From the NCBI GenBank assembly GCA_024276825.1, contig JAJRWI010000051.1, positions 1 to 23,319 of the forward strand: a stretch of 23,319 nucleotides of DNA, given 5' to 3'. Position 1 is the stretch's first letter. Every line of letters starts with the position of its first letter. Made by a program: the position numbers and the translations under genes. A model generated the notes under the pieces. The model was not told the origin of the DNA. It ran no database searches and saw only the letters and a program-made list of their open reading frames with translations. Shown one piece after another: positions 13,336-23,319 of the stretch. Source of the DNA: an archaeon (GTDB taxonomy: Archaea > Asgardarchaeota > Thorarchaeia > Thorarchaeales > Thorarchaeaceae).

Positions 13336-14475
13336 TTGAGTAGAGTATTTACGCGTGCCTGGAAAAGCACTCCAAGAATCAATTGTGGACTCTGTGGTAT
13401 GTCTAATTGTGCCAGCTTTGCTAGAGCCGTCATATATGGTAAGATAGGTGCGGACACATGCCCACTATTCCAGCTTCCAGAATATCAACCTATGAAACAT
13501 GAATTGGAAACCGTGTGCAAGCAGGCACGGCATCCACGTTCAAAGCTTGCCCCGCCAATGCCTGAGGGCGGTATTCTACTCACCAAGCCTTGTAGGGACA
13601 CCAATGAACGCGTAATGGCAGAACTTAGAGTATTCAACGGTGTTCCCACAGGTCAGCCCATCTTGTATGGAGTCTTTGACCCGATGATACTCTGCAAGTG
13701 CCTTAACTGTCTGGAGAGCAAGTTTGAGCTTGTTAAATGCAGTAAGGAATTGGGATATGGCCGGGCAGACACGGGCGACATGAGCATCACGCTACTTCAA
13801 GATGGAAGAATCAACATGCGCAGGGTTCTGGACAAGGATCATGTTCTTGACCTGTTTTCAAAGATAGAGAAAGCCATCTTTGGTTCCGTCATTTGCAACT
13901 CATGTGGACGAGATGTACTGTCGATTCTCCTTGATGCTCGTACTCTTGACGGTGAGAATGAGCATGAGGCCATTTCGGGCGGTAGCACCTTTGACCTTCA
14001 AAGATCAATTATTGGAACTCCCCTTAAGCGAAGTGATGTTGACTCTATTCATAATTCAGAATTAATCAAGTCAGCTATTGATGATGCAATTGTTGTATTC
14101 AGAAGAGCACTAGATAACATCATGAACAAGAGCCCTGTTGACGATGGTCTGTTCAACAAATTGGAAAAGGCAATCTGTTCAATTGTTTCTGAACTCTTTG
14201 TCAACGACTCGGATTATGACACGACAGTGCTTCTAAAAACCATGGCACTATTGCTATTGATTGAGGATGCCATATATGGCATTAATGAAATATCGCTATC
14301 TATCGATATGTTAAAGGAGGATGAGCAGGTATGGCTCGTAAATGCATCAGAAAGCGTGAGGAAGAACTTTACCATTCAAGCCCCTGATATTGCAAATTCC
14401 AAGAAATATATTGCATATGCAAATCTTACAAGGGTTTCAAATGCACTTCGTTTCATATCAATCTGGAATGGCTAA
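13336..14475 (+). CDS. (Fe-S)-binding protein with N-terminal putative Fe-S (PF04060-like) domain
   Basis: PRINCGLCGMSNCASFA...CP Cys pattern; additional KPC, VKCS and CNSCG motifs. Confidence 0.75.
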   Translation: MSRVFTRAWKSTPRINCGLCGMSNCASFARAVIYGKIGADTCPLFQLPEYQPMKHELETVCKQARHPRSKLAPPMPEGGILLTKPCRDTNERVMAELRVFNGVPTGQPILYGVFDPMILCKCLNCLESKFELVKCSKELGYGRADTGDMSITLLQDGRINMRRVLDKDHVLDLFSKIEKAIFGSVICNSCGRDVLSILLDARTLDGENEHEAISGGSTFDLQRSIIGTPLKRSDVDSIHNSELIKSAIDDAIVVFRRALDNIMNKSPVDDGLFNKLEKAICSIVSELFVNDSDYDTTVLLKTMALLLLIEDAIYGINEISLSIDMLKEDEQVWLVNASESVRKNFTIQAPDIANSKKYIAYANLTRVSNALRFISIWNG

Positions 14476-14969: not shown

Positions 14970-15250
14970 GTAATAAAGACTTGAATAAGGCTTTATTTTT
15001 TGCCATTTATGGTCAAACCATCAAAAAAGTCCTTGATTCATATATTGGCAATAATTACAATTGCTTCAGAATATCGTAAAGAGAGTTAATCATTGAAAGA
15101 AATTGAACATAGCGATTTAACAAATTGCATGAGAGAGAATTTGTTCTGGTTGTGCCAGTTTCGACAATAATCAAATTATAAGAGATAAGTTACATTTAAA
15201 TCATAGTGTATATTCGTATTACAAGCGTTCTGGAGAACGAGGAGATATCC

Positions 15251-16663
15251 ATGGTATACTATACCGACGATCCACCTCAAATTAACAGGCGAATGGTGGC
15301 AGGTTATTACCTGTTCCTATGCCTGGTTGGCTTTGCCGTTCTCCTAGGACCAACAGGTGGTGGCATTCCAACAACACTAATTGAGAATGTCCACCGTAAC
15401 CAGCACGAGATCGCAACACCGAATTATGGCACTGATCCTACAGACTGCCAGACATGCCATCCAAATGAATATGGCAACTGGAGTGTAACGGATCATGCCA
15501 CGCACATGAGTGTTGTAAACTCAACTCATGTGCAGATTGGGGCTTATGTTATCATTTCATGGGCATATTTCAACACATCCTGCGCTGAGTGTCATACAAG
15601 TGGTTGGGACAACTCCACGGGCACACCAACTTACGATGCTCTAGGAGTCAACTGCTTTGCGTGTCATAACTCTACAGGATATGTTGATTATTCAGGTGAA
15701 ACATGCTCATCCTGTCACAAACCAAGTGGCGAGGAGCATCCACACCAATATGTCCCATGGCAGAACTCGGCCCATGCGAACTCGTTGACTGACCTCCGAA
15801 GCAGTTCACATGCAGCATCATACTGTATGCATTGCATGTCAACTGAGGGCTTTGTATATCAGCAGAACCCCGAAATGATCGGCAATGATGTCGATACTGG
15901 TTTTGACCCTAATGCCGATTACAATGCAGTGTCTTGCCCAGCATGTCATGCGGTTCATGCAAACTGGTCAGGAACATCGCCAGGAATGATTCGCGCAGTC
16001 AATGCAACTCAGCTATGTGCGAATTGCCACGTTGGAACGTACCACGACACATACCAGCTATGGACTGGTGGTCCACACCATCTTGCTGGAGTTGAGTGTA
16101 CTGACTGTCATGGCTACGATATAGCTCCAGGTGATAATGTATTCCTTAACCACACATTCGTGGTGAATCCAGAAGTTGCATGTGGCCAGAGTACAGAGTG
16201 CCATGAGGGGCAAGAAGACTGGGCCATAAACCAGTTGGAGCAGATACAGAGTGCATTTGATGCCCTCACAGATGAGATTCTCACTGAGGCCTCTGCTCTT
16301 GAAGACATCATTACCACATATAATCAGACTGATGGTGCTGACCATGATCTTGTAGCCGAGGTCATGGATGTGATTGATTCAGTCGTTAGTGAGGTCACTT
16401 ATCTCATAAACGACGGGTCACATGGATTCCATGATCCAATGGAGTTCAGCCAGCGTCTCACTGATGCGTACGCACAACTGCTGAATGCAAAGGCCTACTT
16501 CTATGAAAATCTCCCACCAGACACAGTGATTGAAACAGTCACTGAAACTGTGACCGTAACTGTGCCTGTTGGTGGAACCGACACACTAGTGTTGGCTGGA
16601 GGAGCAGTCGGAGGCATCGTTGTCGGGTTACTCCTAGGAGCGCTCATAGGCAGAAGACGCTAG
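15251..16663 (+). CDS. Cell-surface multiheme c-type cytochrome (7 CXXCH + CXXCM + CX5CH; c554-like repeats and NrfA/c552-like helical C-terminus)
   Basis: CQTCH, CAECH, CFACH, CSSCH, CPACH, CANCH, CTDCH; plus CMHCM and CGQSTECH; DGSHGFH motif; N-terminal hydrophobic segment, Thr/Val linker, C-terminal TM plus RRR. ATG 15251 follows GAGGAG. Confidence 0.92.
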   Translation: MVYYTDDPPQINRRMVAGYYLFLCLVGFAVLLGPTGGGIPTTLIENVHRNQHEIATPNYGTDPTDCQTCHPNEYGNWSVTDHATHMSVVNSTHVQIGAYVIISWAYFNTSCAECHTSGWDNSTGTPTYDALGVNCFACHNSTGYVDYSGETCSSCHKPSGEEHPHQYVPWQNSAHANSLTDLRSSSHAASYCMHCMSTEGFVYQQNPEMIGNDVDTGFDPNADYNAVSCPACHAVHANWSGTSPGMIRAVNATQLCANCHVGTYHDTYQLWTGGPHHLAGVECTDCHGYDIAPGDNVFLNHTFVVNPEVACGQSTECHEGQEDWAINQLEQIQSAFDALTDEILTEASALEDIITTYNQTDGADHDLVAEVMDVIDSVVSEVTYLINDGSHGFHDPMEFSQRLTDAYAQLLNAKAYFYENLPPDTVIETVTETVTVTVPVGGTDTLVLAGGAVGGIVVGLLLGALIGRRR

Positions 16664-16670
16664 AATATTA

Positions 16671-16701
16671 GGGGCCTTTCAGGCCCCAAACTTTTTCTTT
16701 T
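16671..16701 (+). terminator. Intrinsic-terminator-like hairpin after the cytochrome gene
   Basis: GGGGCCT-TTC-AGGCCCC perfect 7-bp stem followed by AAACTTTTTCTTTT. Confidence 0.7.
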
Positions 16702-16772: not shown

Positions 16773-18965
16773 GTGAGAGCGATGAAACGAAGATTTGCAA
16801 TTATAGCATTTACATTCTTGATGCTTTCAGGCACATTGATTTCAAATGAAACAATGCAAATGATTCATGAACGTGTCATTTGTACATCAGTTGACTTTAC
16901 GCCTTCAGAAGAATACAATATAAGCAGCTATCTCGATTTTTCGTGGGCGACGCTTGATATAATGTTCTCATATTTGATGAATTATTCTGATGGCTCAGTT
17001 TTCAGGCGTGGAGATCACCAATGGCAGATAATCTCGCTTCCGCCTAGTCTAGCAGACTATTATTGGGCGATAGTCGGGCTAGCACGTATGTATGATGTGT
17101 CTGCTAAGAGCGGCACACCCAATAATACAATCTCAACAATGATTAGCAGAGCAGCAAACAAGATGGTGAGTCTCTTTCTTGATCCAGAATATCCTGGATT
17201 TTATGTAAATACATATTCACCTGAAGAAGCGCGAACAACTAAGCGTGCAGGAGTTCAAGCATATGCATATTATGCTCTAGAACTTGCAGAGTCAGTAAAT
17301 TCATCATTGGATTTCAGTTCTGAAAAACAATCCGCAATAGACTGCTTGGCGGATATTCTTTATGATGAAGAGAATGGTGGATTTTATTTCTTTACTCTTA
17401 GAAATGGGTCAGTAAAGGTTCCAGACTATATCTATGAAGTATATCCCAATGATGGTAAACGACTTGACCATTTATCCTTAGGAATCATGGCACTCTACGA
17501 TGCAGGGGTAAAATATGGCAACAACACACTGATATCAATGGCCAACAAGTCCATTGATTTCATGCTTCAAAATATGAAGGAATACAATCAGTCCATATAT
17601 TATGGCATGAAACTTGCCGTTAACAGGACTGGAGGAGATGTAATTGTCGAGCAGAATGAGAGACCAGGTAATGTCGTGATCTCAGATATAGATGCCATTG
17701 CTATGCGTGCTTTACTGAAGGCATATGAGGTTACTGGAAACTCGACTTTTTTGGCAAATGCTGAAACATTGGTCAGAGCGCTACTAGAACATAATTGGGA
17801 CACTGAAAATGGTGGATGGTATGCAGAAACATTGCATGGCGAGCCATATGACCCGCTGAATGATAAGGATGTGAAATATTACAAATATGCGGAGATACAG
17901 TTTCAAGTAGTATTCTCACTTGAAGAGTTGTATGAACTCACCGATGAGGAGCAATACATTCAACTTGTAATTGACACACTAGAGCTTATTCTGGCAAACT
18001 TATGGGATATTGAAGATGGGGGCTTCATGCAGAATGGAAATAGAAAATGGGAAACCCTGAGCCAGGACTGGCAAGTGCATAATACTGCAGTGCAAGGTCA
18101 AGCGATCCTTGCATTGGAGCAGATTTGGAGCTATGGTCTTCCAATCATATCATATGTTCGTATCAATCCAGTATCTCCAAGACCAAATGACGAAATTCTC
18201 GTTTCAGCTGTTATTTCAGATCCAGATGGCATCGATCAAGCTTACGTGAATTACACAATGACATTGGGAAATAATGTCACTACTGGCATCTTGCCCCTGC
18301 TTCCAAACCCTCAGGTTAAGGGCATTTTCAACAATACTTTTGGCTATTTGAATGACTCGACCAGAGTGAACTTCTTTGTCTTTGCAAATGACTCGTTGGG
18401 TAATGACTTCATTGCGGGGTCGTATTATTTTGTTGTTCGTGAGGATGTATTTCCACCAACAATAACATTGAGAGCAATCTATCCCAGTGAAGTCAAAGAG
18501 GGTGATGAGGTTATTCTTGAGTTTGGAACCCAAGAGTTTCCCATCCACAGCTCAATAGTATCATGTGTTTTGTTTTGGAAGGTCAATGATGGATTCTACC
18601 AGCAGACAAACATGACATTGGTGGGAGTGGATGACAAGAGTCTGGTGTGGCGCATCAACATTGGTTCATTCAATGGCGGCGATGTGATCTCATACTTCTG
18701 CCAAGCAACGGACGAGTCAGGAAACACAGGAACAAGCATTTACTACAAGTTGACCGTAATTGGACCATCGGTGACCTTTACTCCAGTTGCCCCATGGCAG
18801 GTTGTTGCCGTTGTTGGTTTAGTTTCAGCACCCGGCTTTGGATTTGCCTATGTGTGGTCTCGTCGGAAGCTTGTTGCTAAAAAGCAGCGCATGTTGAAGA
18901 AAGAGGCACGCAGACGAGGACGTAGACCAAGAGGGAAGGGCCGATCACGAAGGAGGCGTTCATAG
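16773..18965 (+). CDS. Secreted alpha/alpha-barrel (AGE-epimerase / six-hairpin glycosidase-like) protein with two Ig-like domains, TM anchor and polybasic tail
   Basis: Signal peptide; repeated DPEYPGFY, DEENGGFY, DTENGGWY, DIEDGGFM barrel motifs; two beta-rich modules ending ANDSLGN and ATDESGN; TM helix then an Arg/Lys-rich tail. Confidence 0.72.
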   Translation: MRAMKRRFAIIAFTFLMLSGTLISNETMQMIHERVICTSVDFTPSEEYNISSYLDFSWATLDIMFSYLMNYSDGSVFRRGDHQWQIISLPPSLADYYWAIVGLARMYDVSAKSGTPNNTISTMISRAANKMVSLFLDPEYPGFYVNTYSPEEARTTKRAGVQAYAYYALELAESVNSSLDFSSEKQSAIDCLADILYDEENGGFYFFTLRNGSVKVPDYIYEVYPNDGKRLDHLSLGIMALYDAGVKYGNNTLISMANKSIDFMLQNMKEYNQSIYYGMKLAVNRTGGDVIVEQNERPGNVVISDIDAIAMRALLKAYEVTGNSTFLANAETLVRALLEHNWDTENGGWYAETLHGEPYDPLNDKDVKYYKYAEIQFQVVFSLEELYELTDEEQYIQLVIDTLELILANLWDIEDGGFMQNGNRKWETLSQDWQVHNTAVQGQAILALEQIWSYGLPIISYVRINPVSPRPNDEILVSAVISDPDGIDQAYVNYTMTLGNNVTTGILPLLPNPQVKGIFNNTFGYLNDSTRVNFFVFANDSLGNDFIAGSYYFVVREDVFPPTITLRAIYPSEVKEGDEVILEFGTQEFPIHSSIVSCVLFWKVNDGFYQQTNMTLVGVDDKSLVWRINIGSFNGGDVISYFCQATDESGNTGTSIYYKLTVIGPSVTFTPVAPWQVVAVVGLVSAPGFGFAYVWSRRKLVAKKQRMLKKEARRRGRRPRGKGRSRRRRS

Positions 18966-18977
18966 GAGGAAACAAAT

Positions 18978-21044
18978 TTGGATATAGGAACAATATTCTT
19001 GCTAGTTGCAATAGGCGTGGGTTGTGTTGATCTGCTGATAATGATCATTGGACCCCGAATCAAAGATTATGAGGCATTATCGCTGGGAATGGCGGTAGTT
19101 GCAGGATTTGCCGCCATTGGGTCAGCAATCTGGTTATTGCTGCTGATTTTCAACAATCAGTTTCAGTATGATTATGTCTATCAGACTACTTCTTCCACTT
19201 CAAACTGGGCCCTTAAGATATCAGCCCTTTGGACAGGGCAGTCAGGTTCACTTGTATTTTGGACAATGTTGTCCTTCTTGCTATATCTGATATATCGATT
19301 TACCATAAGGGGCTATGAGGATGATATGGTAGCATATCGTGCCTCAGTCATCATGATAATCCAGGCAATTCTGATCGCAACAAATACTTTCTTTGCTGAC
19401 CCTTTCAGAATCACAAGTGGCATCGAACGAGTTGAAGGGCTTGGTCTAAACCCACTATTGAGAACATTCTGGAATGTCATTCATCCCCCCATTGTGTTTA
19501 TCGGATATGCATTGACAATGATACCTTTTGCCATAAAACTGGCAGGCTTTACAATCAGAAGCGAAGACAGAAAATCCGAGTCAGTCCCGGTTTTGGAGTC
19601 ATTATCAAGATTCTCCACAATTCTTGCATGGGTGATGTTATCAGTTGGAATAGTGGTTGGAGGTTATTGGGCATATATTGTACTTGGATGGGGTGGATAT
19701 TGGGCTTGGGATCCAGTTGAAACAACATCACTTGTTCCATGGCTACTATTGACATGCTATTTCCATGCAAAGCCAATTCTAAAAAATCATGATGTGTTGA
19801 GAGATTCGTTTCTTGCGTTCGCATTCCCCAGTGTAATATTTGCAACTTGGGTCACCAGAAGTGGTGTTCTAAATTCAGTTCACCTTTTCTCATTATCAAT
19901 TGTGAGTTGGACCATGCTTGCAACATTACTAGGAATATTCATAATTACAGCAATAATTACTGCGTGGTCGGGATATCGCGATGCAGAGCCGGAAGATGAG
20001 AGCGAAGAAACGGGAGTGAGAAAGTCATCATTCTCATTCCATAATCCAAGAAATGTTTCTGTCATGATTGCATTATTTGGTCTGATAATTGTACTCATGG
20101 TGTCTGTGATTGGTGTGGCTTTACCAGCAACTCTCAACATTCAGACTGTAATCGCGAACCCTGATGCTCCCCCCGAAGAAATGGTGTCCATTGGTCAGGA
20201 CTTCTTCTGGATTGGATTCTATGTATCCTGCTTTCTAATAGCAGCATCCGCATTCTTCTGCATGGATTCATCATTCATTAAGAATAGATTGAAAGTGATT
20301 GGGGTTATCGTGTTATTGGCCATTGGAGGAGCTTTGGGCATTGTGTCATTTCTCAACCCCACCATGCCCATACCAACGACAAACTGGTTGGTGAATGCTG
20401 CAATCCCAATCGCCCTCGGTGCTCTTATCTACATGGCAGTGGTATTCATTCGAGTTCTAATAGGACGCGAAAAGACTGCATTTACATTTAGAAGAATGGG
20501 CCGCGTAATGCTCCATTTGGGGCTACTCATCTTGATCTTTGGTGTTCTAATGAGTGAGAACAGCGTATACGAGTCAAATGCAATGTATCGAGCTAATGAT
20601 GCATACGAAGTGGCCCCACAAATATGGGTCCAAGTAAAGGGCATTGACCTTGTGTACTGGAATAATCAACGTGATTTCAAATTAGTGGTCACTGTTTTTG
20701 TCATAGAAGGTGACAATGTAATAGGCATTGGAGTCGTGAGTATACAAGGATATCCTGAGTGGGGCTCGGTGATTCATACTGTTTACATACACAACACTCC
20801 ATTTAGAGATGTGTTCATTGCAGTAAATGGATTTACTCAGGTAGCACCTAATGTAATGGCAGTTTCACTTCATACAAAAGTACTGCCATTCATGGCTTTT
20901 GTCTGGACAGGGTCATTCTTTCTTATATCTTCAATGTTGCCTATGGCGGCCATTGAGGGCTCTCGCTTCATTAAGAATTTGCGTGAGAAATATCAGGACG
21001 AACACCAAGAAGAAGAAACTGAAGATGTTGAAGCTTCCGAGTAA
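18978..21044 (+). CDS. ccmF: Cytochrome c heme lyase / synthetase CcmF (NrfE family), full length
   Basis: LWTGQSGSL, GLGLNPLL, IHPP, WGGYWAWDPVE (WWD domain), TRSGVLNSVH, MLHLG; TTG start after GGAGG. Confidence 0.93.
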   Translation: MDIGTIFLLVAIGVGCVDLLIMIIGPRIKDYEALSLGMAVVAGFAAIGSAIWLLLLIFNNQFQYDYVYQTTSSTSNWALKISALWTGQSGSLVFWTMLSFLLYLIYRFTIRGYEDDMVAYRASVIMIIQAILIATNTFFADPFRITSGIERVEGLGLNPLLRTFWNVIHPPIVFIGYALTMIPFAIKLAGFTIRSEDRKSESVPVLESLSRFSTILAWVMLSVGIVVGGYWAYIVLGWGGYWAWDPVETTSLVPWLLLTCYFHAKPILKNHDVLRDSFLAFAFPSVIFATWVTRSGVLNSVHLFSLSIVSWTMLATLLGIFIITAIITAWSGYRDAEPEDESEETGVRKSSFSFHNPRNVSVMIALFGLIIVLMVSVIGVALPATLNIQTVIANPDAPPEEMVSIGQDFFWIGFYVSCFLIAASAFFCMDSSFIKNRLKVIGVIVLLAIGGALGIVSFLNPTMPIPTTNWLVNAAIPIALGALIYMAVVFIRVLIGREKTAFTFRRMGRVMLHLGLLILIFGVLMSENSVYESNAMYRANDAYEVAPQIWVQVKGIDLVYWNNQRDFKLVVTVFVIEGDNVIGIGVVSIQGYPEWGSVIHTVYIHNTPFRDVFIAVNGFTQVAPNVMAVSLHTKVLPFMAFVWTGSFFLISSMLPMAAIEGSRFIKNLREKYQDEHQEEETEDVEASE

Positions 21045-21097: not shown

Positions 21098-21490
21098 TCA
21101 GACAGATGTTGTTGAGTTGGTTTCATACTTACTGGGGCATTGAATCAATATTTCCTCAGCAATCATCAACTTAGCGGATTGAAGAACACCTATTGCGACA
21201 ATGTCTTGATCATCTTCAAATCCAGGCAATGTTCCTTCAAGCATCACTGTGAGTGTATGCGTTTCGCCATATATGACAAAAGTAATGTTATTTTGGGTGA
21301 CTGTCAGTGAACCTGCAAGTACTTTTCCTTTAACCTGGATATTAAGACCGATGTAGTAGTCAGCATTTTCAACTACAGTGTCAACACTGAGGTATGGATC
21401 AACATACAGTTGCAGCATTGCATAGGAAATACCGCCCACAACAGCCACAAGAACAATTGCGACCACGATCATTCGAGTCTTCTTTCTCAT
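21098..21490 (-). CDS. ccmE: Heme chaperone CcmE, Cys-type (System I*)
   Basis: N-terminal TM, beta-rich body, ILIQCPSKY (CxxxY in place of HxxxY). Confidence 0.92.
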   Translation of the reverse strand: MRKKTRMIVVAIVLVAVVGGISYAMLQLYVDPYLSVDTVVENADYYIGLNIQVKGKVLAGSLTVTQNNITFVIYGETHTLTVMLEGTLPGFEDDQDIVAIGVLQSAKLMIAEEILIQCPSKYETNSTTSV

Positions 21491-21497
21491 AAATGAC

Positions 21498-21632
21498 CTA
21501 CTCCTGATCTTCTATTTTTAACCTCTTCATTGCATTTTCAATACGATTCATTCGAATTAAAAGATAGGCAAGGAATATTAGAATTCCACCCCATAGGATC
21601 ATTGCCACTGTAAAGAGTTCTGTCTGTTGCAT
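21498..21632 (-). CDS. ccmD: CcmD-like small membrane protein (44 aa, not in ORF track)
   Basis: MQQTELFTVAMILWGGILIFLAYLLIRMNRIENAMKRLKIEDQE*: single TM plus charged tail, exactly between ccmC and ccmE (4-nt and 7-nt gaps), AGGAG upstream. Confidence 0.8.
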   Translation of the reverse strand: MQQTELFTVAMILWGGILIFLAYLLIRMNRIENAMKRLKIEDQE

Positions 21633-21636
21633 TTTA

Positions 21637-22305
21637 TCAGCTCCTGTTCATTCGGTATTCCATCAGTTTTTCATTAACCTTGTCAACGCGATATGTAATA
21701 TCCAAAATCATGATGTAAAGCAGGATAATAGCAATAATGCTAATGCCAAGAGTCATCCCATGTTCAACTGCCATCTGCAGACCGATTGGTGTGATGACAA
21801 CTGGATGCAGAGTGTTCCACAGGTGAATCGAGAGATAGCTCAAGATTACAGCAGGAAATGCTATTATCCCGAAAAGAGAGCCATACTGAGCTCTGATTTC
21901 AGGATCATTAATGGATGCACGATATACAAGTAGACAAGCATAAGCGATCCACAGAATTAATGTGGTGGTTTCTCGTGGGTCCCAATTCCAGGGTGACCCC
22001 CAAGTGGCTGCTGCCCATTGCATTCCTGAGAGTAGTGTTATTGTTGTGAAGAGTAGACCAATTTTAATTGATGCACCACTTACCAAGTCATAGCGGATAT
22101 CACTCTTCCATAAATAGAGAATACTTGAGATCAGAGTCACTCCAAATGCCAAGTATGCTGTGAGGGCGGGTGCAACATGCTGAAAGAGAATTCTGATTAG
22201 TTCGTGCAATGTTGCTTCAGGAGGTGCAAAGATCCATGTCATATATATGTAGATCACTCCTGTAATCATGGTCGCAATATAGAGCAGCAATCGAGTTCTA
22301 TTCAC
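21637..22305 (-). CDS. ccmC: Heme exporter/delivery protein CcmC
   Basis: WAAATWGSPWNWDPRETT WWD motif with flanking His in FQHV and TLHP. GTG 22305 follows AGGAG (ORF track start 22323). Confidence 0.93.
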   Translation of the reverse strand: MNRTRLLLYIATMITGVIYIYMTWIFAPPEATLHELIRILFQHVAPALTAYLAFGVTLISSILYLWKSDIRYDLVSGASIKIGLLFTTITLLSGMQWAAATWGSPWNWDPRETTTLILWIAYACLLVYRASINDPEIRAQYGSLFGIIAFPAVILSYLSIHLWNTLHPVVITPIGLQMAVEHGMTLGISIIAIILLYIMILDITYRVDKVNEKLMEYRMNRS

Positions 22306-22374
22306 AGCAATCTCCTGCCTCAATGTATTTAATCTATGTTATGAAACTTTCGTTAAGATATTGGTTTCAGGCTT

Positions 22375-23046
22375 TCAGTTTGTTAAAACATAATTGAATA
22401 TTGAGGCGGAGAGAAGCATCATTGCAAACAGATGTCCTGCCACTAGTTTCAGGAGAATGTCAAGGCCGATGAGAAGTGGTCCCATGACAAGACCCCGAGT
22501 CAATTCAACAAGTAGGATAAGTGCAGATGTTGCTGTTGGAAAATATACAAGAGGAAAGATTGTTGCCTTAGACTCTACTGGTAATGTAAGCGCTGATGCC
22601 ATGGATCCAACAGTTGCCAAGTCCAATGTTCCCAGAATGAAGGTGGCATAAACATAGGGATTGGTAAATGATAGGCTGAAACCAAAAAGCACCATAGAAA
22701 TTGGAATCAGGAACACTTCAACAGTTATCATCAAAAAGAATCCATAGGTCACTTTCCCCAGATATACAGCCCATGCAGGAATAGGGGCCACAGAAATGCC
22801 CTTCAGAGTTCCAGTGTCAACCTCAGACAGGAACACTGGTGCGAACCCAAACATGCCGGTTAGAAAGATTATCACCCATAACATCGCACTGCCAATCTCT
22901 GGTGAGATGTCACCACCCATTCCAAACGCGAAGGCAAGCAGTGATATCAAAGCAAAGAGAAACATTGCGAATAATTCAAATGGACGTCGGAATTGAATCA
23001 TTATGTCTTTTTTAGCGATGGCCATAATGGCTCTCAAATATGTCAT
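22375..23046 (-). CDS. ccmB: Heme exporter permease CcmB
   Basis: AIAKKD N-terminus, FLSEVDTGTL, YLGK, about 6 TM; lies between ccmA and ccmC. Confidence 0.88.
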   Translation of the reverse strand: MTYLRAIMAIAKKDIMIQFRRPFELFAMFLFALISLLAFAFGMGGDISPEIGSAMLWVIIFLTGMFGFAPVFLSEVDTGTLKGISVAPIPAWAVYLGKVTYGFFLMITVEVFLIPISMVLFGFSLSFTNPYVYATFILGTLDLATVGSMASALTLPVESKATIFPLVYFPTATSALILLVELTRGLVMGPLLIGLDILLKLVAGHLFAMMLLSASIFNYVLTN

Positions 23047-23055
23047 TTCATCACC

Positions 23056-23319
23056 TCAGAGTTTTCCTCCGAACTGGTCAATTGGGCCTATCCCCTTAAC
23101 TTCGCCCTTCCGCAGCAGGAGATAGGTGTCGCTCATTCTCTCGCCCAGATTGATGTTATGGGTCGTCAAAATGGTAGTCTTTGTTTTTCTGATGCTGTTT
23201 AGATATTCAGAGAACATCTCCGAGGAGTCCGCATCAAGACCAGAGTAAGGCTCGTCAAGTAGAAGAAGTCGGGGATCATGAAGTACTGATCGAATTATGT
23301 CCATCCGTTTCTTAAGACC
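23056..23319 (-). CDS. ccmA: Heme ABC exporter ATPase CcmA (C-terminal part; truncated by window edge)
   Basis: Frame open from the window end: GLKKRMDI (end of ABC signature), LLLLDEPYSGLD (Walker B/D-loop), ILTTH (H-switch); directly upstream of ccmB. Confidence 0.85.
   Translation of the reverse strand, partial: GLKKRMDIIRSVLHDPRLLLLDEPYSGLDADSSEMFSEYLNSIRKTKTTILTTHNINLGERMSDTYLLLRKGEVKGIGPIDQFGGKL

Follow-up and report, generated by a model that had tools for sequence, protein, structure and literature searches.

In c-type hemes, as a rule, the residue that immediately follows the second Cys of the binding motif is a His (or Lys) and serves as the proximal ligand; the heme c motifs listed in the literature have no residue other than these two at this position (PMC11492766). 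In OcwA, a nonaheme terminal reductase at the cell surface of Thermincola potens that can pass electrons to iron oxides, shuttles or electrodes, hemes 2 and 5 are five-coordinate and are the putative active sites; hemes 5 to 9 overlay NrfA, with heme 5 in the place of the active site (PMC6703420). MccA and HAO are described as pruned descendants of an OcwA-like nonaheme, and it is again slots 5 and 2 that are affected there (PMC6703420). A natural five-coordinate heme c bound by Met is found in NrfH (PMC8840924). With regard to maturation, the E. coli Ccm system failed, according to PMC4158909 (citing Allen 2005), on engineered CXXCM, CXXCK and CXXCR motifs; this is the sole reported test of CXXCM. 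Furthermore, a single mutation in the motif His sharply lowers lyase activity (bioRxiv 10.1101/2025.05.29.656830). For CXXCK, S. oneidensis appears to achieve maturation via its general CcmF together with CcmI (PMC12285233). Our search of the literature, which covered open full text, returned no natural CXXCM, only an engineered b562 variant or unrelated text.

The window analysed here is a 23,319-nucleotide stretch of DNA from an Asgard archaeon of the Thorarchaeota. It contains a multiheme cytochrome gene in which TGT ATG CAT TGC ATG, read in frame as CMHCM and followed by STEGF, stands where a heme motif is expected. The relevant features of this gene are:

15206 to 16663, + strand: membrane-anchored multiheme cytochrome c of OcwA type with nine slots; 485 aa in the gene call.
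15446 to 16111, + strand: other canonical CxxCH motifs (slot 1 at 15446, slot 3 at 15653, slot 4 at 15704, slot 6 at 15935, slot 7 at 16016, slot 8 at 16097).
15581 to 15595, + strand: slot 2, with the canonical motif CAECH; equivalent to OcwA heme 2, which like heme 5 is five-coordinate.
15809 to 15811, + strand: His202, five residues upstream of CMHCM; common to OcwA and conserved in 102 of 114 sequences.
15824 to 15838, + strand: slot 5, CMHCM (C207, M208, H209, C210, M211), equivalent to OcwA heme 5 and NrfA heme 1.
16043 to 16045, + strand: His280, aligned with OcwA H381 and the His of NrfA HPEY, in the distal pocket over slot 5.
16181 to 16204, + strand: slot 9, CGQSTECH, a long-spaced C-x5-CH; its spacing varies in the family, mostly 4-10 residues.

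Seven CxxCH motifs, CMHCM and one C-x5-CH thus make nine slots. The true start of the protein is probably the conserved Met16, at about 15251. At the N-terminus of the cytochrome lies a hydrophobic helix, and at the C-terminus a TM helix whose last residues are RRR; a three-helix bundle, a Thr/Val stalk and nine N-x-S/T sequons are also present. From the hydrophobic termini, sequons and stalk the protein is predicted to be tethered to the membrane and to face outward at the cell surface. D403, S405 and H409 are invariant, PF02335 matches over residues 280-443, and the NrfA-type C-terminal bundle with its DxSxGxH is present. The predicted model has a mean pLDDT of 75 and is low at 282-311. Among relatives, slot 1 is often C-x4-CH and slot 9 is mostly C-x4 to C-x10-CH; such variable Cys spacing at slots 1 and 9 suggests a lyase that is tolerant of spacing.

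OcwA (PDB 6I5B) is the best solved match of the family profile (E 1e-23), with the nine motifs in the same order and CMHCM falling on its fifth motif. OcwA is also the closest predicted fold (VIA Z 19.6, rmsd 5.2 over 321 residues; Foldseek E 1e-10), followed by the undecaheme OmhA (6QVM, Z 17.1) and then by nitrite reductases. The nine slots are collinear with a c554 module (1-4) and an NrfA module (5-9). Given these profile and fold matches and the overlay of OcwA on NrfA, the CMHCM slot is the slot of the NrfA CXXCK heme. The first-pass annotation had placed CMHCM in a heme slot by means of an internal repeat, and this placement is borne out: a W..S.H element precedes both CAECH and CMHCM, and the two map to OcwA hemes 2 and 5, respectively.

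The window cytochrome shares with OcwA and OmhA the nine collinear slots, the globular heme domain, the three-helix C-terminal bundle and the His202 and His280 context of slot 5. By analogy with OcwA and NrfA, the wire hemes can take their distal ligands from His97, 190, 251, 291, 316 and 409, so that His209 is left over as one more conserved His; OcwA has Met where the window cytochrome has His291. Other differences are found at slot 5, where OcwA combines CXXCH and its proximal His with a distal His-His pair and the window cytochrome combines CMHCM with Tyr-His; His-His distal motifs over hemes 2 and 5 occur in all OcwA but not here. Unlike OcwA, the window cytochrome also has the C-x5-CH at slot 9, archaeal N- and C-terminal membrane segments, the stalk and the sequons. 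We conclude that it descends from the same stock as OcwA and probably works like it.

To put the motif in context, we compared the window cytochrome with 119 homologues at 41-73% identity, which carry Thorarchaeota protein names (120 close sequences in total). Both Cys are invariant where covered (C207 in 114/114, C210 in 118/118), M208 is kept in 116/118 and H209, a near-invariant His that the first-pass annotation had passed over, in 117/118; most canonical motifs of the protein vary more at their inner residues. Position 211 is Met in 108 sequences, Gln in 10, Leu in 1 and His in 1. Since a locus scan that uses the CMHCM pattern is biased, motif counts were taken from other sets, namely the 120 close sequences, 90 distant ones and loci found without the pattern. 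A pattern-free search located the cytochrome gene in 24/59 genomes of the source family and in 11/16 of a second Asgard family. The 22 source-family loci found in this way read CMHCM (19), CLHCM (1), CMHCQ (1) and CMRCH (1), and in the second family each of the six loci read has C[LM]HCM. The motif is shared by Hodarchaeales relatives as well.

The source genome (98.3% complete) encodes two multiheme cytochromes only, and both carry CMHCM. The second, at C74:23002-24453 (+) of genome G000 (P0003), uses different codons for the motif, and among genome loci the Cys and His codons of the motif differ synonymously while the residues stay unchanged. This paralog stands alone, lacks the distal-pocket His loop and has Glu at the His202 position; a by-eye reading of N-terminal sequence puts it beside probable ferrous-iron transporter and metal-repressor genes. 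It should also be noted that in one genome of the same genus (G236, locus L070; single contig, 86% complete) the sole copy found is a canonical CMRCH, with no barrel match (see below) within 1.5 kb.

A sequencing error, or the strain-specific decay of one heme site, has a vanishingly small chance of explaining the motif. All that speaks for it is the non-canonical motif itself, while the motif type recurs in 119/120 close sequences, in 21/22 pattern-free source-family loci, in both paralogs and in the second Asgard family. Error and private mutation are thus ruled out by the conservation, the paralog, the synonymous codon variation and the pattern-free loci, and the view of the first-pass annotation that CMHCM is real and in frame is upheld. 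That annotation had also named a state of affairs that would undo its reading, in which all close homologues carry CXXCH; in fact His is found in a single one of them. Judging from these alignments, CMHCM is a lineage-wide motif under selection.

In the distant set of 90 near-full-length relatives, the fifth residue is something other than His in 33/87 sequences at slot 5 (Met 21, Lys 4, Val 3, Arg 2, and Leu, Gln and Asn) and in 10/79 at slot 2 (Met 6, and Arg, Lys, Phe and Trp), counts that overstate independence because the rows are related. At slots 1, 3, 4, 6, 7 and 8 the figure is 0/534. Among the eight slots counted, non-His residues are therefore confined to the two that match the five-coordinate hemes, 2 and 5. 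Background frequencies are 2% for Met and 7% for Leu, yet Leu appears once at slot 5, versus 21/33 for Met. In the homologue alignment proposed in the first-pass annotation, CMHCM is conserved and, in relatives, alternates with CxxCH and CxxCK at slot 5. Slot 2 is often CxHCM or another variant in relatives of the Hodarchaeales clade. Separately, a subclade of Hodarchaeales type (P0143, P0144, P0146, P0149, P0159, P0161, P0219 and P0223) has GCCH or GCCM at slot 2, with adjacent Cys followed by His or Met. The NrfA motif CxxCK is seen in OcwA-like relatives on separate branches, at slot 5 in P0155, P0197, P0218 and P0254 and at slot 2 in P0132.

The residue at motif position 3 covaries with this substitution. 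His is found there in 21/33 non-His versus 0/54 canonical sequences at slot 5, and in 5/10 versus 0/69 at slot 2, the sequences being kin and not independent. A strict mutual exclusion of His at positions 3 and 5 held throughout the distant set; it was broken by one further sequence, a CVHCH, which has both.

On a tree built without the motif columns (a fast tree with modest support), at least 10 changes between His and non-His are counted at slot 5. Met, which needs three base changes from His, arises in several separate branches, including a relative from a cluster labelled bacterial. A canonical subclade (CMYCH, CMRCH) is nested in the Thorarchaeota CMHCM clade. Placing the CMYCH pair outside the Thorarchaeota plus Hodarchaeales clade is rejected (AU p=0.002), while a position as sister to all other Thorarchaeota rows is not (AU p=0.198). 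A position of the pair inside the larger clade implies either a reversal or two gains. Taken together with the CVHCH and CVHCM proteins, which are close relatives, the nested canonical proteins and the AU rejection make it appear that the slot 5 pocket switches back and forth between His and non-His. True losses do exist, in that the slot 5 motif is deleted in P0166 and P0180 and replaced by aromatics in P0223. Unlike in the clean-deletion relatives, the flank length around CMHCM equals that of OcwA.

Downstream of the cytochrome gene, the window contains the following:

16671 to 16687, + strand: terminator-like hairpin 3' of the cytochrome gene (consensus match only).
16773 to 18965, + strand: membrane-anchored (alpha/alpha)6-barrel protein with an AGE-epimerase/GH76-like fold, between the cytochrome gene and ccmF.
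18978 to 21044, + strand: ccmF heme lyase with an intact WGGxWxWD motif (WGGYWAWD).
21098 to 23319, - strand: ccmE (CPSKY, CXXXY type), a 44-aa ccmD-like ORF, ccmC, ccmB and the end of a probable ccmA.

This arrangement resembles the archaeal System I of Methanosarcina in having CcmB, C, E and F, a probable ccmA, a CcmE of the CXXXY type and no CcmH match; it differs in its single full-length CcmF, the CcmD-like small ORF and the conserved barrel gene beside ccmF (PMC9084895). The source genome gave one CcmF copy, which is full-length, and no match to CcmH (PF03918). The small ORF at 21498-21632 (-), conserved at 44-47 aa after ccmC with a hydrophobic N-terminus and a charged tail (also in L001, L006, L024, L033 and L052), is putatively CcmD-like by its size and place; ccmD has been reported as mostly lacking in archaea (PMC9084895). 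Since a single CcmF was found in this 98.3% complete genome, the adjacent copy must be the general lyase for the canonical sites too. A dedicated adjacent lyase for CMHCM is therefore ruled out in the source genome, which corrects the first-pass annotation, where this CcmF was named as the possible installer. Its accompanying premise, that CXXCK needs a dedicated lyase, is not universal, S. oneidensis being the counter-case. A Ccm system serving only two multiheme substrates could nevertheless have adapted to them.

Apart from two CMYCH loci, every Thorarchaeota-type locus whose downstream sequence is long enough (27 loci) has the barrel gene 3' of the cytochrome gene, and ccmF is nearly always next. 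The same order of cytochrome, barrel and ccmF is kept in two Hodarchaeales-clade loci, and beside P0157 the barrel gene is found alone. It is missing beside the CMYCH copies, P0136 and the second CMHCM paralog of the source genome; hence the link between barrel and cytochrome may reflect lineage and not the motif. Fold searches with the barrel returned sugar epimerases and hydrolases as top matches; a complex prediction with the cytochrome (score 0.02) is given no weight here. The barrel protein has a further extracellular region and an invariant K-R-x-D-H, and the gene order is common to two Asgard groups. Upstream of the cytochrome gene, 13336-14475 (+) encodes a protein of 379 aa whose N-terminal part contains a putative Fe-S cluster domain (PF04060); this protein was not found beside the cytochrome in other loci.

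The distal side of slot 5 is far less constant than the motif. The window cytochrome has the distal motifs H178-P-H180 and Y279-H280, which are variable or deleted across the family. A His is present in the distal-pocket segment of 97/120 close sequences and absent in 23/120, including the source-genome paralog; in the distant set it is absent in 11/21 CxHC members versus 12/54 canonical ones. Four residues only separate heme 7 from His280, and the NrfA Tyr/Ca segment is absent. His202 stands at the spacing of the second-sphere Arg of NrfA.

These observations bear on whether the protein is an ammonia-forming nitrite reductase of the NrfA type, with Met in place of Lys at the catalytic heme and a dedicated adjacent lyase. 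It shares with NrfA and the octaheme nitrite reductase a non-His fifth residue at the very slot of CXXCK, a helical tail with the C-terminal bundle and DxSxGxH, and a distal His, His280, which aligns with that of HPEY. However, it has Met, Gln or Leu where the NrfA active site has Lys or, rarely, His, and it has four extra N-terminal hemes and, of the second-sphere Arg/Tyr/His triad, an aligned His with the Tyr-bearing segment cut to four residues, and the pocket His is lost in many members. With two multiheme proteins and no NrfD match in the 98.3% complete source genome, neither an NrfH nor an NrfBCD partner was found, and the single CcmF is general. OcwA itself is slow on nitrite (kcat 1 per min; PMC6703420). 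We consider this function very improbable, and the NrfA annotation given in databases was rejected on the motif (Met, Gln or Leu in 119/120), the triad and the partners. The proposal of a catalytic heme in the first-pass annotation is weakened by the same loss of the Lys, the Tyr loop and, in 23/120, the pocket His. Its broader proposal of a Met-proximal or otherwise unusual heme holds in so far as the motif sits in a heme slot and Met lies far above its background, and is undercut by the Gln, Leu, Val, Phe and Trp found at slots 2 and 5.

The main issue is whether slot 5 still holds heme. We lean towards heme being retained on C207 and C210, with an open face and with Met or some other non-motif residue as ligand, since the family has repeatedly arrived at Met and Lys rather than at the commoner filler Leu, appears to switch back to CxxCH and keeps its flanks unchanged. 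Among the non-His residues Met (21/33) and Lys (4/33) predominate, and both are known to ligate iron. As a parallel that we propose here, heme 1 of Desulfovibrio vulgaris NrfH is bound by Met in a CXXCHXM motif; there, the fold is unrelated, the canonical CXXCH is kept and Met lies two residues on, unlike in CMHCM, which is without that His (PMC8840924). If heme is retained, C207 and C210 would carry a covalent heme c put on by the single general CcmF, and His209 would probably offset the lost motif His, either in maturation, through recognition or transient ligation, or as a ligand proper. Such a side heme, retuned and open on one face, would receive electrons from the bis-His chain and would more likely serve as an exit for electrons or a contact site for substrate than as the centre of a nitrite reductase. 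The likeliest form of this reading has Met211 as a weak proximal ligand, although taken by itself this form is less likely than not. The Gln, Leu and Val variants imply that Met is not essential, such that another residue could ligate; we regard it as unlikely that the iron is held by, for example, His209 or a pocket His while Met, Gln or Leu merely packs the proximal face. The fullest version, in which CxHCM is a natural heme c motif with Met as proximal ligand, matured by a single CcmF via the His before the second Cys, possibly with help from the conserved barrel protein, and forming a tuned, open redox site on the surface of Asgard cells, strikes us as rather unlikely when taken as a whole. 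Several facts count against retention. Iron cannot be ligated by the Val, Leu, Phe or Trp seen at the fifth position, and ligation by Gln is unlikely. E. coli Ccm failed on CXXCM (PMC4158909), and the source genome gave one CcmF and no CcmH match. The distal His is missing in the 23/120 close and 11/21 distant CxHC sequences noted above, the one CVHCH joins both His residues, and a sister position of the CMYCH pair is not rejected.

The opposing reading, that heme 5 has been pruned to leave an eight-heme wire, is a serious possibility that falls short of being probable. The C-x-H-C would then be kept as a redox-active or structural disulfide, or as a Cys/His/Met metal site. The reported dependence of E. 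coli Ccm on the motif His (PMC4158909), the sharp drop in lyase activity on mutation in this His (bioRxiv 10.1101/2025.05.29.656830), the failure to find a second lyase in the source genome, the non-ligating residues and the relaxed distal pocket all fit it. Slot specificity fits heme loss equally well, since hemes 2 and 5 are those proposed lost in HAO and MccA (PMC6703420), and slot 2 can shrink to GCCH or GCCM while slot 5 can vanish (P0223). CxHC resembles the active sites of DsbA and PDI, and Met, Gln and Leu are the axial series of type 1 copper sites. Set against pruning are the repeated gain of Met over Leu, which a metal site could explain and a plain disulfide could not, the apparent reversal to CxxCH inside the clade with unchanged flank length, and the Lys variants at the slot of NrfA's own Lys. 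Furthermore, unlike MccA and HAO, the present family keeps both Cys and the x-His-x-Met pattern while switching with CxxCH.

The conserved Met motif may stand for a mode of heme binding that is new to the literature, or else for a site that has lost its heme and kept its Cys. If heme is present, a natural CxHCM at a reactive slot would extend the specificity of heme lyases, would give the NrfA/OcwA/HAO superfamily a new set of active-site ligands and would alter the number of hemes counted in genome surveys restricted to listed motifs. If it is absent, the family would show heme pruning at an intermediate stage, in which a Cys/His/Met site lies next to a heme wire. The question is directly testable, since relatives with natural CxxCH, CxHCH and CxHCM exist, some of them within the same genomes. 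By analogy with OcwA, the most likely role of the cytochrome is in terminal or extracellular electron transfer. Databases mostly give it the name of nitrite reductase; it is a candidate protein for extracellular electron transfer by Asgard archaea.
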